Assembly: GCF_028368995.1 (NCBI RefSeq) | Contig: NZ_JAQNDL010000001.1 | Coordinates: 1,344,001 to 1,408,000 of the forward strand | DNA: 64,000 bases | Source: Nannocystis bainbridge | GTDB lineage: Bacteria; Myxococcota_A; Polyangia; Nannocystales; Nannocystaceae | Reading direction: 5' to 3' | Shown: piece after piece, positions 2 through 36,592 of the stretch | Position numbering within the stretch: the stretch's first letter is position 1 | Layout: each line of letters begins with the position of its first letter | Program-made: the position numbers and the translations under genes | Notes under the pieces: generated by a model | Databases searched by the model: none | What the model was told of the DNA's origin: nothing | What the model saw: the letters and a program-made list of their open reading frames with translations, nothing else

Positions 2-1198
<1,197 letters not shown>

Positions 1199-30849: not shown

Positions 30850-32861
30850 AGTACGTCCTCAAGTCGAGCGCCCCGACGCGCCAGCCCTTCGATCTTTCGC
30901 GCGAGCTCAACCCCCAGCAGCTCGCGGTCGTCGAGGCCGATCCGGGCGAGATCCTCGTGCTCGCCGGCGCCGGCACCGGCAAGACCCGCACGCTCACCTA
31001 CCGCGTCGCCCGCCTGGTCGCCGGCGGCTGCCACCCCGAGCGGATCCTCCTGTGCACATTCACCAATCGCGCCGCGCGCGAGATGGTCGCGCGGGTCGAA
31101 TCGCTGCTCGGCGTCGAGATGCGGCGCTGCTCGGCCGGCACCTTCCACCACGTCGGCAACCGGATCCTCCGCCGCTACGGCGCCGCGATCGGCCTCTCGC
31201 CCGACTTCGGCATCCTCGACCCCGAGGACGCGCGGACCCTGCTCAGCGCCGTGGTCGCGGAGTTCGGCCTGCAGACATTGACCGCGCGCCGGTTCCCGCA
31301 GCCCAAGGTGCTCGCCAACCTGATCAGCCTGGCCGCCAACACCCGCAAGCCGCTGCTGCAGGTGGTCGAGGAGCACGGCCTGCGCCTGCTCGACCAGGCC
31401 GTCATGGTCGAGGAGGTCGCGGTCCGCTTCGCCGAGCGCAAGCGCCACATGAACGTGTGCGACTTCGACGATCTGCTGATCCACTGGCTGCGCCTGCTCG
31501 AGGACCCGCGGCTGACCGAGGTCGCCGCGCTGGTCCGCTCGGCCTACGACCACGTGCTCGTCGACGAGTACCAGGACGTGAGCGCGATCCAGGGCGCGCT
31601 GGTCGACGCCATGGCCAAGGAGCACGGCAGCCTGGTGTGCGTCGGCGACGACGCCCAGTCGATCTACGGCTTCCGCGGCGCCGACTTCGCCCAGATCGCC
31701 GAGTTCCGCGGCCGCCACACCCAGGCCCGGCTGTATCCGCTGACCATCAATTACCGCTCGACGCCCGAGGTGCTCGCGCTCGCCAATCGCAGCATCGCCC
31801 GCAACGTCAAGCAGTACCCCAAGGAATTGGTGGCGGTGAAAAAATCAGGGCCGAAGCCGGCCGTGATCCCGCTGCGCGACGTGTTCCAGCAGGCCGAGTT
31901 CATCGCCCAGCGCGTGCTCGAGCTGCACCACGAGTACGACATGCCGCTGTCGCGCATGGCCGTGCTCTACCGCAACCACTCGCACAGCCTCGAGCTGCAG
32001 GTCGAGCTGACGCGGCGGCAGATCCCCTACACCGTGCGCAGCGGCCTCCGCTTCTTCGAGCAGGCCCACATCAAGGACGTCGTCGCCTACCTGCGCGCGC
32101 GCCAGAACCCGCAGGACAGCCTGTCGTGGATCCGTCTGCTGCGCCTGTGGCCGGGCGTCGGCGCGCAGACGGCCGAGCAGCTGGCGGTGCTCCTGGCCAA
32201 AGAGACAGCCGCGGGCGCCGCCTCGGCCGGGCAGGTGCTGGCCGACCAGGCCGGCCAGGCGCGCGGGCGGGCCAAGCCGGCGCTCGAGCGGCTGGCCGAG
32301 CTGTGGACGATCCTCGAGAACCCCGATCTGCGCAGCCCCGGCGCGATGATCCGCGAGGTCGTCGCCCGCCACTACGGCGAATACACCGACCGCAACTTCC
32401 CCAACGCCGCCGCGCGCAAGGACGACCTCGAGCACCTCGCCGGCTACGCCGAGCGCTACGACGGCGCCAACGAGTTCCTCAGCGAGCTCGCCCTGGTCCA
32501 GGGCATGAGCGCCGAGAACGTGCTCGGCGCCGAGGAGCCCGACGACATGTTGGTGCTGTCGACGGTGCACCAGGCCAAGGGCCTCGAGTGGCCGATCTGC
32601 TTCGTGCTGTGGCTGGCCGAGGGCCGCTTCCCGATGGCCACCGCCGTGCGCGACCCGGCCGATCTCGAGGAGGAGCGGCGCCTGTTCTACGTCGCGGCCA
32701 CCCGCGCCGCCGACGAGCTGTACTGCTGTTATCCGGTGATCGAGGAGAACCGCGACGGGCCGTCGCACATCATGCGCCCGAGCCGCTTCCTGGTCGAGAT
32801 CGATCACAACCCGGCGGTGTTCGAGCGCTGGCAGATCGAAGAGTCGCCGGCGACCGGCTGA
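30846..32861 (+). CDS. UvrD/PcrA/Rep-family ATP-dependent DNA helicase
   Basis: AGAGTGKT, TFTNRAA, DEYQD, VGDDAQSIYGFRGA, NYRS, STVHQAKGLEW, EEERRLFYVAATRA. Confidence 0.95.
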
Positions 32862-32867
32862 CCTCGC

Positions 32868-32933
32868 GCGGATGGCGGCGCGGACATGCTCCCGGGAGCA
32901 TGTCCGATCGCACATGCTCCTTCGGACACACCG
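32868..32933. repeat. 14-bp-period array, 5 units, between helicase and histone 3' ends
   Basis: GATG 32871, CATG 32885/32899/32913, CACA 32927; includes perfect 24-bp palindrome 32882-32905. Confidence 0.9.
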
Positions 32934-33045
32934 AAGATTTGCCGCTCGCTGTGCGGCCGATCTGCCGTGGCGCTCGCCGCAATTATTGCCGGCGGACCGG
33001 GCAATCGTCGGTCACGACATTTCGGCCGGTCGGTCGCCGGGCACG

Positions 33046-33079
33046 AAAAAAGGCCGCCCCGGACGGGAGCGGCCTTTTT
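33046..33079. terminator. Bidirectional intrinsic terminator
   Basis: AAAAAAGGCCGCCCC-GGAC-GGGAGCGGCCTTTTT: GC stem with A/T tails on both sides, between convergent genes. Confidence 0.85.
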
Positions 33080-33113
33080 GTTCGCTGCGTGCGACCCTCG
33101 CGGGTCGGACGGC

Positions 33114-33311
33114 CTACAGGTCGTAGGGGCGAACGGTGCTGCGGTTGTTGCTCTTGCAGCGCTCGATCGCGGCGCCGAGGAGCTCGTGGACCTTGTCGGA
33201 CACGGCCTGGATCAGCTCACCATCGCTGCGGAGACCCGCGTCGCGGATGACGTCCTTGACCTTGCTGCCGACGACGAGGATTTCCTTGGGTGCCTTGTTC
33301 TTGGTTGCCAT
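33114..33311 (-). CDS. Bacterial histone-fold protein (Bd0055/HBb-like), 65 aa
   Basis: MATKNKAPKEILVVGSKVKDVIRDAGLRSDGELIQAVSDKVHELLGAAIERCKSNNRSTVRPYDL; LVVxSKVK N-terminus and RxTVxxxD clamp; ATG 33311. Confidence 0.88.
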   Translation of the reverse strand: MATKNKAPKEILVVGSKVKDVIRDAGLRSDGELIQAVSDKVHELLGAAIERCKSNNRSTVRPYDL

Positions 33312-33774
33312 TGTTGGGTTCTTTCGCTCGTACGTCCGTGGGGACGAGAATGTGGAGGAGGTCGCGGTAGATCGGAGAAGCCCGACCTCGTTGCTCGGCA
33401 AGGACCATAATCCGGAACATCTGCTCTGCAAAGGCAAATTTGCAGCGTAGGAGCCAACTTTTTTCGGGGAGGGCCAGCGGGGAGGGGGTAGCGGCCCGTG
33501 TACCTTAGGTCTGACGGACTAGTCGGGCCCGCCGATCGCACCGACGCTGCCGCGGATGCGACCCCGCTAAAGCGGCGATATTCCATGAATCTGGCCTCTA
33601 AGCGCCGCCGCGGCCGCCGAATTGCTCGACGTCGGCGCGGCGCATGTCGATGCTGCGAGCAGAGTCCGATCTCCCTGAAGCCCGCGTCACAACCTGCGAG
33701 GTGCAGAAGATCGCATCTGCCCGCAGCGGTGACGATCGCCGGCCGGGTCACTCGCAGCTGCGTCGCTCCTTCCT

Positions 33775-34323
33775 TTAAGAGGAAGCAGCGAGGTCCTCGC
33801 AGGCGAGCGACCATGCGGACAGCAGCGCGGCTGCACGGGGGCCAGTGGCCGCGGCGAACAGAGATCTGCGGTCCGCCGACGGACGCGAAAGCGTGATCGC
33901 CAGGTGGTCCGCGGGCGGCGAACGCCACCGAGATCCCCACTCGACGATCATCGCCGTCCCGCGCTCGAGGCTCGGCTGTTCGGCCGCTTCGCCGAGCGCA
34001 CCGGACTCGAGCAGCAGCTCCTCGAGGTCGAGGGAATCGAACCCTGCGCCGCCGCCGAGGCCCTCGTCGTCGTCGCCGCCGAGGCGGAACAGATCGACGT
34101 GGACGAGGCTGGGGCCGCGGCCGTGGTGGACCATGCACAGGGTGAAGGTCGGGCTCTGGACCCGACCGGGATGAGACACGCCGAGCCCGACGGCGATCGC
34201 ACGGGTGAGCGTCGTCTTGCCTGCGCCCATGGGGCCGTGGAGCAGCACCACGTCGCCCGCTCGCAGACTCGCACCGAGCGCGCGCCCGCGCAGCGCCATC
34301 GCCTCCTGGTCGAGGTCGGTCAT
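33775..34323 (-). CDS. tsaE: tRNA threonylcarbamoyladenosine biosynthesis ATPase TsaE
   Basis: LLHGPMGAGKTTL, VQSPTFTL, HVDLFRL, IVEWG; start uncertain (ATG 34323 or GTG 34383). Confidence 0.92.
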   Translation of the reverse strand: MTDLDQEAMALRGRALGASLRAGDVVLLHGPMGAGKTTLTRAIAVGLGVSHPGRVQSPTFTLCMVHHGRGPSLVHVDLFRLGGDDDEGLGGGAGFDSLDLEELLLESGALGEAAEQPSLERGTAMIVEWGSRWRSPPADHLAITLSRPSADRRSLFAAATGPRAAALLSAWSLACEDLAASS

Positions 34324-34459
34324 TTCCCGCGATCGTGGGGCGCCTTCGGCGTCCGCGCCCGTATTCGTCGGCCCTGCGCTCACGCCGCGAGTGTACACGC
34401 CGCGCGTCGCCCGGGCGGCCTTGTGCGCCGCGAAACTCCGGTGGTACAGGGCTGGTCCG

Positions 34460-36592
34460 ATGCTCGCAGTGGGCTCTCGTCTCCTCCGCCGCGCCGCCGC
34501 GTGCGCCCTCGTCGGCGCCGTCGCGTGCGAGCCGGGGCCGCCGCCGGAGCGGCGGGTGGCCGAGCCCGTCGACCCCTTGCGACCGCTCGACGTCCGCGGC
34601 CCCATCCCCGCCGGCATCAAGCTCGCCGACTACGTCCTCGACGCCAGCCTCGACGCCGAGAAACACACCGTCACCGGCACCGCGCGGATCACCTGGCGCA
34701 ACAGCACCCGCGCCCCCGTCGACGCGCTGGTGCTCCACCTCTATATGAACGGCTTCCGCGCCGAGGACACCGCGTGGATGGCCGAGGCCCGCGGCTCGCA
34801 CCGCGGCGCGCGGCAGGACAAGGGCGAGGGCAAGTGGGGCTACATCGACGTCCGCGCCGCTCGCCTGCTCGCGCAGGGACCGAGCGCCGACTTCAAGGCG
34901 CCCGAGCAGCGCGACGCTGCCGCCACCCCACTCACCCTCGTCGAGGGCGCCGACCCCAGCCTCGGCTCGCTCGCCTTGCCGCGCCCGGTCGGCCCTGACG
35001 AGACCATCACCGTCGAGCTCGACTTCTTCACCCAGCTGCCGCGGGTGTTCGCGCGCACCGGCTACGACGGCGAGTTCCACATGGTCGGCCAGTGGTACCC
35101 CAAGCTGGCGGTGCGCCACGAGGGCGGCTGGCAGGCCCACGTCTTCACGCTTCACAGCGAGTTCTACGCCGACTTCGGCGACTACGACGTCCACCTGGAT
35201 GTCCCCGAGGACATGGTCGTCGGGGCATCCGGCGTGCTGGTCGAGGAGCGGCCGCCGGAGGGCGGGCGCAAGCGGCTGCGGTACCGCGCCGACACCGTGC
35301 ACGACTTCGCCTGGGCCGCCTCGCCCGACTTCCTCGAGTACGGTGATACCTGGCGCGACGTCAGGATCCGCCAGCTCGTCCCGCGCGCGCTCGCGGGCGA
35401 CGTGCAGCGCCACCTCGACGCCCAGGTCGCCGCGCTCGAGAGCATGGACGCTCGCTTCGGGCCCTACCCGTGGTCGACGATCACCATCGTCCACCCGCCG
35501 GAGTCCGCCGGCGGCGCCCAGGGCATGGAGTACCCGACCTTCTTCACCACCTCCGACATCCTGCGCGTGCCGCTGCCGCTGCGCCTGCTCGGCATCCACG
35601 AGCTGCTCACCGGCGAGTTCACCACCATCCACGAGTTCGGCCACCAGTATTTCCAGGGCCTGCTCGCCTCCGACGAGGCGACCCAGCCGTGGCTCGACGA
35701 GGGCATCAACTCGTTCTCCAACACCCTCGCGCTCGACGACTGGCTCGGCGACGACGCCACCATCGCCCGCATCGGCAACCAGCGCGTGTCGACCATCGAC
35801 ATGATCCGCGTCGCCCTGCAGACCGCCGCCGAGCTCGACCCCGTCGACCGCCGCGCCGAGGACTACCGCGACTTCACCGGCACCTTCGGCGGCACCGTCT
35901 ACCGCAAGACCGCCGCCGTGTTCCACACCCTGCGCGCGCTGGTCGGCCCCGAGAAATTCGACCGCGCCTTCCGCATTTACTGCGACACCTGGCGCTTCCG
36001 TCACCCGACCGGCGCCGACCTGCGGGCCGCGCTCCTGCGTGAGATCGGCCCCAAGGTCAGGATCTCCGACACAGGTCCCGACGGCCAGCCGGTCGACCTC
36101 GACGTCGCCGACTACCTGGCCCAGGCGATCGAGACCACCGCCTCGGTCGATTTCGCCGTCACCCGGGTCGCCAACCGCCGGGCCGTCGGCGACGCCGGCT
36201 GGCGCCGCGGCCAGGACGGCGCGCTCGCGCTGATCGAGCCCGAGCCCGCGCCCGAGGGCGAGGAGCTGGGCGACGAGGCCAGCGAGGGCTTCGCGCTGAT
36301 CGTGCGCGAGGGCGAGTTCCGCGTCCCGGTCGAGATCGAGTTCGCGTTCAAGGGCGGCGCGCGCGAGCGGCTGTGGTGGGACGGCCAGGCCCGCTACCGC
36401 GTGTTCACCTTCCCCGGCAAGAAGCTCGCCGGCGTGGCGATCGACCCCGACGACAAGCTCCTGCTCGAGGGCGAGCGGCTCGACAACCGCGTGCGCGGCC
36501 CGGGCCAGCGCACCCCCGACGGCCTCAGCGATCCGGTCGCCCGCTTCCACGAGGCCATGGACCTCGCGGTGCTCGGAGGTCTCGGCCTGTGA
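34460..36592 (+). CDS. M1 family zinc metallo-aminopeptidase, lipoprotein
   Basis: Lipobox GAVAC; GMEYP; HEFGH...WLDEG; VYRK. Confidence 0.92.
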   Translation: MLAVGSRLLRRAAACALVGAVACEPGPPPERRVAEPVDPLRPLDVRGPIPAGIKLADYVLDASLDAEKHTVTGTARITWRNSTRAPVDALVLHLYMNGFRAEDTAWMAEARGSHRGARQDKGEGKWGYIDVRAARLLAQGPSADFKAPEQRDAAATPLTLVEGADPSLGSLALPRPVGPDETITVELDFFTQLPRVFARTGYDGEFHMVGQWYPKLAVRHEGGWQAHVFTLHSEFYADFGDYDVHLDVPEDMVVGASGVLVEERPPEGGRKRLRYRADTVHDFAWAASPDFLEYGDTWRDVRIRQLVPRALAGDVQRHLDAQVAALESMDARFGPYPWSTITIVHPPESAGGAQGMEYPTFFTTSDILRVPLPLRLLGIHELLTGEFTTIHEFGHQYFQGLLASDEATQPWLDEGINSFSNTLALDDWLGDDATIARIGNQRVSTIDMIRVALQTAAELDPVDRRAEDYRDFTGTFGGTVYRKTAAVFHTLRALVGPEKFDRAFRIYCDTWRFRHPTGADLRAALLREIGPKVRISDTGPDGQPVDLDVADYLAQAIETTASVDFAVTRVANRRAVGDAGWRRGQDGALALIEPEPAPEGEELGDEASEGFALIVREGEFRVPVEIEFAFKGGARERLWWDGQARYRVFTFPGKKLAGVAIDPDDKLLLEGERLDNRVRGPGQRTPDGLSDPVARFHEAMDLAVLGGLGL

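Follow-up and report, generated by a model that had tools for sequence, protein, structure and literature searches.

A conserved alpha3-truncated histone gene of Nannocystis bainbridge and its assignment to the FtF branch

To our knowledge, the study of bacterial histones is a young field in which three proteins have been examined at the bench, namely HBb (Bd0055) of Bdellovibrio bacteriovorus, the histone of Leptospira interrogans, and HLp of Leptospira perolatii. Histones with a truncated third helix (alpha3) have been split into face-to-face (FtF) histones, which form ring tetramers and are marked by R48, N52, R54, T56 and D61 of their hidden Markov model (HMM), and “bacterial dimers” such as HBb, which are without R48 and N52 of that model (Schwab 2024, PMC11390915). 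The FtF histone of Leptospira is described as the main, essential nucleoid protein, and HLp was solved as a tetramer with an interface of R49, S52, N53, R55, T61 and F63, an RD clamp between R55 and D62, and about 60 bp of wrapped DNA (Hu 2025, PMC12701072). The present analysis concerns a gene of this kind in Nannocystis bainbridge (Myxococcota_A; Nannocystaceae), located in a stretch of 64,000 nucleotides (contig NZ_JAQNDL010000001.1 of assembly GCF_028368995.1, positions 1,344,001 to 1,408,000), hereafter called the window, within which positions are counted. The reading that we favor, with a probability of roughly 0.8, is that this single-copy gene, with a transcription unit of its own, encodes a tetramer-forming FtF histone that is most likely nucleoid-associated alongside four HU/IHF proteins.

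The family, its presence in the clade and its basic tails are already in print; the protein belongs to a known kind of histone, in which it is unexceptional, and it amounts to a useful pointer and not a discovery. FtF histones in Myxococcota are listed by both Schwab 2024 (PMC11390915) and Hu 2025 (PMC12701072), and the legend of Fig. 1A in Hu 2024 (PMC11317129) names aligned proteins of Plesiocystis pacifica (A6GF99), Enhygromyxa salina (WP_052547863.1) and Nannocystis exedens (WP_096326703.1); myxobacteria have no occurrence in Hocher 2023. Bacterial FtF histones are reported to carry mostly positively charged N-terminal tails, whereas archaeal ones are mostly tailless (Schwab 2024, PMC11390915), and the bacterial members come mostly from uncultured organisms, two Leptospira species being the sole culturable carriers with complete genomes that are named by Hu 2025 (PMC12701072). 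New here are the complete identity of the protein in four species, its linkage to tsaE, the promoter-like block and terminator, and the coexistence with four HU/IHF genes.

The gene, its fold and its subfamily

The open reading frame (ORF) at 33114-33311 is certainly a genuine gene. It runs from an ATG to a TAG on the minus strand and encodes MATKNKAPKEILVVGSKVKDVIRDAGLRSDGELIQAVSDKVHELLGAAIERCKSNNRSTVRPYDL, with 12 Lys and Arg residues against 9 Asp and Glu residues; the LVVGSKVK (residues 12-19), RSTVRPYD (residues 57-64) and N-terminal MATKNKAPK segments, which had been picked out in an initial sequence-only reading of a 65-residue ORF, are all present. In a protein collection clustered at 90%, every one of 216 candidates matches the histone at E ≤ 0.001; a further search gave 344 representatives at that threshold, 48 of which reach E ≤ 1e-10. 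The exact sequence is recorded on 45 contigs (NCBI, UniRef, JGI, ENA and Logan), and at all 8 of the 8 sites where contigs of environmental runs depart from the coding sequence (CDS) of the window, the change is synonymous and falls on a third position. A local dip in G+C content to 0.61-0.65 does not extend beyond this small, Lys-rich gene and the spacer that belongs to it.

Translation probably begins at the ATG at 33311, because the extensions upstream of it in longer gene calls (93-101 residues; 101 in P0002 and 93 in P0009) are dissimilar to one another, although the cores are 94-100% identical, and because a 1-nt deletion at 33316 in relatives, 5 nt before the ATG, shifts the upstream frame. 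Over-extended calls to 90-101 residues are common for this gene (P0002, P0004-P0009; 33312-33437 in the window), and the same two observations identify them as annotation artefacts of open high-GC frames.

By sequence, the best match among solved structures is HLp (9qt0; E 3.8e-10), to which residues 6-64 align one to one, and weaker matches are obtained with HBb/Bd0055 (E 2e-4) and archaeal HTkC (E 0.41), the pairwise match to HLp being about six orders of magnitude stronger than that to HBb. A profile of 81 diverse relatives likewise matches HLp at 1.2e-23 (86 bits), HTkC at 1.9e-14 and HBb at 2.7e-14 (56 bits). The AlphaFold2 model (pLDDT 83.3) places helices at residues 15-24, 33-54 and 62-64, and contains the histone fold with a shortened alpha2 and a one-turn alpha3 that FtF histones display. 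In Foldseek this model is closest to 9qt0 (TMt 0.95, root-mean-square deviation (rmsd) 0.8 Å over 56 columns, 38% identity), followed by HBb (TM 0.81-0.86, rmsd 1.0 Å) and HTkC (TM 0.86, 28% identity), with nucleosomal histones at no more than 0.6. The earlier proposal of a histone with an RxTxxxxD clamp is thus upheld by sequence matches and model alike, and the structural comparison with Bd0055 that it had recommended does return a histone fold, if one that lies closer to HLp.

The residues that separate the two branches point in the same direction. Among the 81 diverse relatives D64 never varies, and conservation of R51, N55, R57 and T59 is 90% or higher; R51, N55 and R57 are invariant in 44 close relatives, and the spacing R-x3-N-x-R-x-T-x4-D reproduces FtF HMM positions 48/52/54/56/61. 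The counterparts of R48 and N52, whose absence marks the HBb type, are both present, whereas HBb shows S and D in place of R51 and N55 in the pairwise alignment, and by pairwise and profile scores the protein does not cluster with HBb. Because it is far nearer to HLp than to HBb and keeps the tetramer residues R51, N55 and R57, the window protein is, as judged by sequence and model, an FtF histone and not a member of the HBb/Bd0055 branch; the label “Bd0055/HBb-like” given in the sequence-only reading accordingly does not hold (E 3.8e-10 vs 2e-4, and 86 vs 56 bits, for HLp and HBb, respectively).

The correspondence with HLp extends to the surfaces used for assembly and DNA binding (Table 1). 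Numbers for HLp are those of the paper, which equal the PDB chain numbering minus 2, as verified on about 20 named residues against the pairwise alignment. All nine of the nine HLp DNA-contact positions are identical or conservatively replaced in the window histone. Oligomer modelling, a check which had also been suggested at the outset, favored assembly: a four-copy model scored 0.89 (three runs) vs 0.00 for the best of three controls, none of them of the HBb type, with at least 98% contact agreement between runs and a partner pLDDT of at least 88. The mark used for this score is reached by 20 of 30 same-chain solved pairs and by 1 of 23 single chains, a calibration that is rough here, where an alignment of our own and four copies were used. 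In the predicted assembly, a second interface, formed with a third chain beyond the dimer interface, runs through residues 50-51, 54-55, 57, 61 and 63-64, which is the interface of HLp.

Table 1. Features of the histone gene and protein, with positions in the window or in the protein; HLp residues are from Hu 2025 (PMC12701072).
Feature	Position	Strand	Description
Histone CDS, alpha3-truncated, assigned to FtF	33114..33311	minus	65 residues, 7.1 kDa, pI 9.3
Protein layout	residues 1-9; 15-24; 33-54; 62-64		basic tail; alpha1, followed by loop 1; alpha2, followed by loop 2; one-turn alpha3
Loop 2 motif	R57-x-T59-x4-D64		carried by loop 2
Tetramer interface, HLp R49/S52/N53/R55	R51/S54/N55/R57		all kept
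RD clamp, HLp R55-D62	R57-D64		
DNA contacts, HLp A13 S14 K15 K17 K21 T27 G29 T56 T57	G15 S16 K17 K19 R23 S29 G31 S58 T59		
Intrinsic terminator	33046..33079	minus	A5, 9-pair G+C-rich stem (one G-U pair), 5-nt loop, U6
Putative 5' leader, about 85 nt	33312..33396	minus	hairpin and purine-rich element invariant in 9/9 aligned Nannocystis-clade sequences
Promoter-like block	33397..33466	minus	conserved 9/9 in spacer alignment
A6 tract	33464-33459	minus	part of promoter-like block
Inverted repeat TGCAA-N8-TTGCA	33444-33427	minus	overlaps -35-like element
-35-like TTTGCA	33432-33427	minus	17-nt spacer to -10-like element
-10-like TATGGT	33409-33404	minus	
TsaE (t6A tRNA modification ATPase) ORF	33775..34620	minus	PF02367, E 6e-24; upstream same-strand neighbour

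Conservation, locus and transcription unit

The histone is 100% identical across four named Nannocystis species, for which the same comparison gives 84-88% identity for TsaE, 85-89% for the M1 peptidase and 96-98% for UvrD; identical copies occur in N. exedens, N. pusilla and N. punicea, the locus of N. exedens DSM 71 (L081) among them. Named close homologues derive from Nannocystis, Enhygromyxa, Nannocystaceae and “Myxococcota bacterium”, and 79 of 401 sampled Myxococcota genomes contain a match at E ≤ 0.001, including 4/4 other genomes of the same family. A basic N-terminal tail is usual in the family, the net charge being at least +2 for 42 of the 44 close relatives and for 56 of the 81 diverse ones. 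Some FtF histones of the clade have long Ala/Lys/Pro-rich tails of up to about 30 residues (P0152, P0131, P0093; L061:5704-6333), which recall those of linker histones, whereas the window tail has 9 residues.

Within the genome (11.05 Mb in 5 contigs), searches with the protein, the 81-relative profile and PF00808 found no second histone-fold gene, two other matches having E values of 0.57 and 0.94, and the PF00808 scan found the window histone alone, below its cut-off. Four PF00216 (HU/IHF) genes stand above the cut-off. A scan of species-representative genomes yielded 229 candidate stretches and 198 relatives, of which the best 80 loci were analysed. In 45 of these 80, tsaE precedes the histone gene on the same strand, mostly with a divergent M1 peptidase gene beyond tsaE, and a UvrD-like helicase follows within 6 kb in 11/80; 35/80 are without tsaE. 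Of the 20 genomes that contributed two of these loci (L041/L090, L049/L114, L051/L098, L055/L103 and 16 further pairs), 19 have one copy linked to tsaE and one that is unlinked, from which it follows that many Nannocystaceae hold a second FtF paralogue, the carriers including two strains of Enhygromyxa salina, Paraliomyxa miuraensis, Nannocystaceae bacterium ST9 and many metagenome-assembled genomes (MAGs). The window gene is the tsaE-linked copy, and Nannocystis genomes, that of the window included, show this copy alone.

The adjacency of tsaE and the histone gene is a conserved gene order, which does not imply a functional link. A mobile or phage origin of the histone gene was considered and rejected, because its neighbours in the window are of the housekeeping kind, encoding an M1 peptidase, TsaE, a UvrD-like helicase and a DPP-IV-like peptidase, because this order is kept throughout the family, and because the dip in G+C content is a local one. 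As a separate observation, the TsaE ORF is listed with 281 residues, of which the Pfam TsaE domain spans only 105-251, and tblastn matches of relatives mostly start past residue 99; either the true start lies further in or the protein has an Arg/Ala-rich N-terminal extension.

The histone gene is followed by an intrinsic terminator that is real. It begins about 35 nt past the stop codon, and the 82-nt 3' region folds at -45.9 kcal/mol (z -3.5); a simple terminator scan detects the inner 5 pairs only. Because it is symmetric, with an A-tract and a T-tract, it could also stop transcription of the UvrD-like helicase gene, which runs towards it and ends at 32861. A permissive Rfam search of 32500-34200 produced six matches at E ≤ 1, all far under the gathering scores and all on the terminator hairpin, and these were set aside as chance.

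Upstream, a non-coding spacer of 463 bp reaches the stop of the TsaE ORF at 33775. In an alignment of this spacer from the window and eight Nannocystis-clade loci, the promoter-like block is the sole long part that can be aligned in the divergent loci L079, L094, L099 and L108. A TTTGCA-N16-18-TATGGT-like pattern was found upstream in 12 of the 45 tsaE-linked loci, four of which encode proteins at 76-78% identity, and in 1 of the 35 remaining loci, whose short flank precludes judging linkage. A consensus promoter scan of 32800-33900 gave no site at the threshold of 9 of 12, the conserved pair of -35-like and -10-like elements scoring 8 of 12. The start of the putative leader is invariant and holds a small hairpin, GGUCGG..CCGAUC, for which covariation offers no support, since none of the 6 pairs varies. 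Equally invariant is the purine-rich GCGAAAGAA (33327-33319), which stands 8 nt ahead of the ATG where a canonical Shine-Dalgarno sequence would be expected.

The strong terminator and the long upstream region described in the sequence-only reading are therefore both found, and its proposal of a monocistronic gene agrees with this anatomy, whereas for the high expression that it added there are weak hints only, from the contigs of RNA-labelled runs considered below. With weights from 22 genes for ribosomal proteins, EF-Tu and EF-G, the histone has a codon adaptation index (CAI) of 0.715, which ranks at the 55th percentile among 2532 background ORFs (0.697 ± 0.091); because these reference genes themselves reach only 0.727 leave-one-out, the index carries almost no expression signal here. 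The reference genes (C2:2102140-2120068) share near-average codon usage in this genome.

A proposed mechanism and its alternatives

The favored reading proposes that two chains would associate head to tail into a histone-fold dimer, and that two such dimers would close into a ring, the contacts being made by R51, S54, N55, R57, R61, Y63 and D64 at the C-terminal end of alpha2, in loop 2 and in the one-turn alpha3. DNA would be bound without sequence preference on the basic rim of the ring, by G15-S16-K17 and K19/R23 in alpha1, S29/G31 in loop 1 and S58/T59 in loop 2, and, by analogy with HLp (about 60 bp per tetramer), might be wrapped around it; the short Lys-rich tail probably contributes unspecific affinity. 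Its gene is present once, on the chromosome, and has a conserved promoter-like block, a putative leader of 85 nt and a terminator to itself.

Several points weigh against this reading. The tetramer in solution, the wrapping of DNA, the abundance, the cellular role and the location in the nucleoid are drawn from analogy. Of the HLp interface, T61 and F63 are changed to Y63 and L65. The success of the four-copy model may reflect memory of, or likeness to, the tetramers of HLp and HTkC, and since these are already solved it is possibly not independent support; nor was there an HBb-type protein among its controls. No Pfam family exceeds its cut-off, PF00808 (CBFD_NFYB_HMF) scoring 17.8 vs 21.4 bits and PF09123 (DUF1931) 16.8 vs 21.8 bits, and an NCBIfam search of the protein gave zero matches, although the two Pfam models are simply insensitive to this histone branch. 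As judged from the genomes sampled, the histone is patchy across the phylum and fixed in the lineage of the window. With four HU/IHF genes in the genome, it need not be the main organiser of the chromosome. A literature search found no experimental study of any myxobacterial histone, which bears out the sequence-only reading in so far as it called such homologues uncharacterised, whereas their listing or alignment in Schwab 2024, Hu 2024 and Hu 2025 limits that claim.

Abundance is touched upon by public sequencing runs. Contigs from three RNA-labelled runs of three studies (soil, rhizosphere and root) cover only 33117-33386, at 94-99.5% identity, and terminate at 33351, 33374 and 33386, none extending further upstream; a contig of 2083 nt from a run that is probably DNA spans 33039-33596. 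The coverage by RNA-run contigs fits, as a weak hint, a short transcript with a putative start near 33395, but such contigs give no level, strand or ends, the libraries may hold DNA, and the uncovered parts of 32900-33600 are no evidence of transcript ends.

The alternative that survives best, which we nevertheless consider unlikely, accepts the FtF fold and assembly and holds that the protein is a condition-specific DNA-binding factor (serving, for example, cells that rest or starve, or the protection of DNA) or one that acts at particular sites, HU/IHF doing the bulk of the work. The four HU/IHF genes and the patchy occurrence of the family in the phylum would agree with this, as would the conserved TGCAA-N8-TTGCA, which overlaps the -35-like element as expected of a regulated promoter, and the FtF histone of Thermococcus has been described as playing a minor part beside other histones, one that depends on conditions (Schwab 2024, PMC11390915). 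However, the complete identity across Nannocystis species and the presence in 4/4 genomes of the same family fit a core function, and the contigs in RNA-labelled soil, rhizosphere and root runs are a weak hint of common expression. It is very unlikely that the protein is instead a “bacterial dimer” of the HBb/Bd0055 type, which would stay dimeric and compact DNA by sharp bending or end-on binding without tetramer wrapping, for, although the alpha3-truncated fold is common to both (TM 0.81-0.86, rmsd 1.0 Å; sequence match E 2e-4), Nannocystaceae histones have been aligned beside HBb with its DNA-contact residues called conserved in Myxococcota (Hu 2024, PMC11317129), and bacterial dimers are listed in “Myxococcota_A” (Schwab 2024, PMC11390915), HLp is far the better match both pairwise and by profile, R51 and N55 are nearly invariant in the family yet missing from bacterial dimers (Schwab 2024, PMC11390915), and the four-copy model forms its second interface from R51 and N55.

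The tetramer-forming, nucleoid-associated histone could be extended into a joint scenario, which we regard as highly improbable. The protein would be a major chromatin protein of the 9-13 Mb Nannocystaceae genomes, forming nucleosome-like tetramer particles beside HU/IHF; its Lys/Ser/Thr-rich tail would be reversibly modified by acetylation or Ser/Thr phosphorylation, a repressor would act at TGCAA-N8-TTGCA, and a sister line, the fusions of signal peptide, RRM and histone, would have been recruited outside the cytoplasm. If this were true, a bacterium would possess a histone-tail system under regulation.

Variant relatives and described systems

Among relatives outside the window, 23 of 37 longer homologues are fusions with an RRM, all with PF00076. 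They have about 156-160 residues, arranged as a hydrophobic leader ending in A-x-A, RRM_1 and an FtF histone fold (P0133, P0306-P0328), the latter being 70-82% identical to the window histone with R/N/R/T/D kept, and their only source is metagenome contigs of 0.5-64 kb. If the leader, judged by eye, is a signal peptide, these may be exported nucleic-acid-binding histones. Tandem FtF doublets occur behind a similar leader (P0122, P0123, P0125, P0128, P0299, P0300, P0304; locus L100:6022-6387), their linkers carrying a conserved Cys (D-[FILV]-x-C); doublets that also bear an RRM are P0124, P0135 and P0146, and a doublet ORF that appears leaderless is present in a “Candidatus Moanabacter” MAG. 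With the doublet P0123 as query against the 401 Myxococcota genomes, nine gave matches, to the first repeat only, which are single histones, and no doublet was found; neither fusions nor doublets were found in the window genome by searches with the protein and the 81-relative profile. A literature search on RRM-histone fusions found nothing, the terms RRM, signal peptide, periplasm and extracellular are absent from the text of Schwab 2024 (PMC11390915), and an ESM Atlas look-up of an RRM-histone fusion gave no usable match.

With respect to described systems, the Nannocystaceae histones of Hu 2024 are orthologues or near-orthologues of the window histone, with no substantive difference from it, and are there aligned only. 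The archaeal FtF histones HTkC of Thermococcus kodakarensis (9F2C) and D4GZE0 of Haloferax volcanii have in common with the proposed structure the ring tetramer and R-x3-N-x-R-x-T-x4-D (PMC11390915), HTkC being 28% identical to the window histone. HBb/Bd0055 of Bdellovibrio bacteriovorus (8CMP, 8FVX, 9EZZ) resembles it in the truncated-alpha3 fold, the short alpha2, the RD clamp and a Lys-rich alpha1 face; however, HBb acts as a dimer and is without the interface R and N, both of which the window histone has (PMC10627809, PMC11317129). The likeness to HLp (PDB 9QT0, 9QT1, 9QT2; PMC12701072) comprises the alpha3-truncated fold, a length of 63 vs 65 residues, the R/S/N/R residues and the RD clamp, together with a predicted second interface that matches that of HLp. 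The two proteins are nevertheless only 38% identical, and the window tail is the more basic, with three Lys in nine residues. The neighbourhoods also differ, with tsaE beside the window histone vs smc, map and DUF350 in Leptospira (PMC12701072). The Nannocystis copies would supply, in named strains, a free-living FtF carrier that belongs to a second phylum, and, whereas Leptospira is reported to be without HU (Hu 2025, PMC12701072), the window genome has four HU/IHF genes, so that a carrier which keeps these proteins would allow one to study how a histone and the classical nucleoid proteins share their work.

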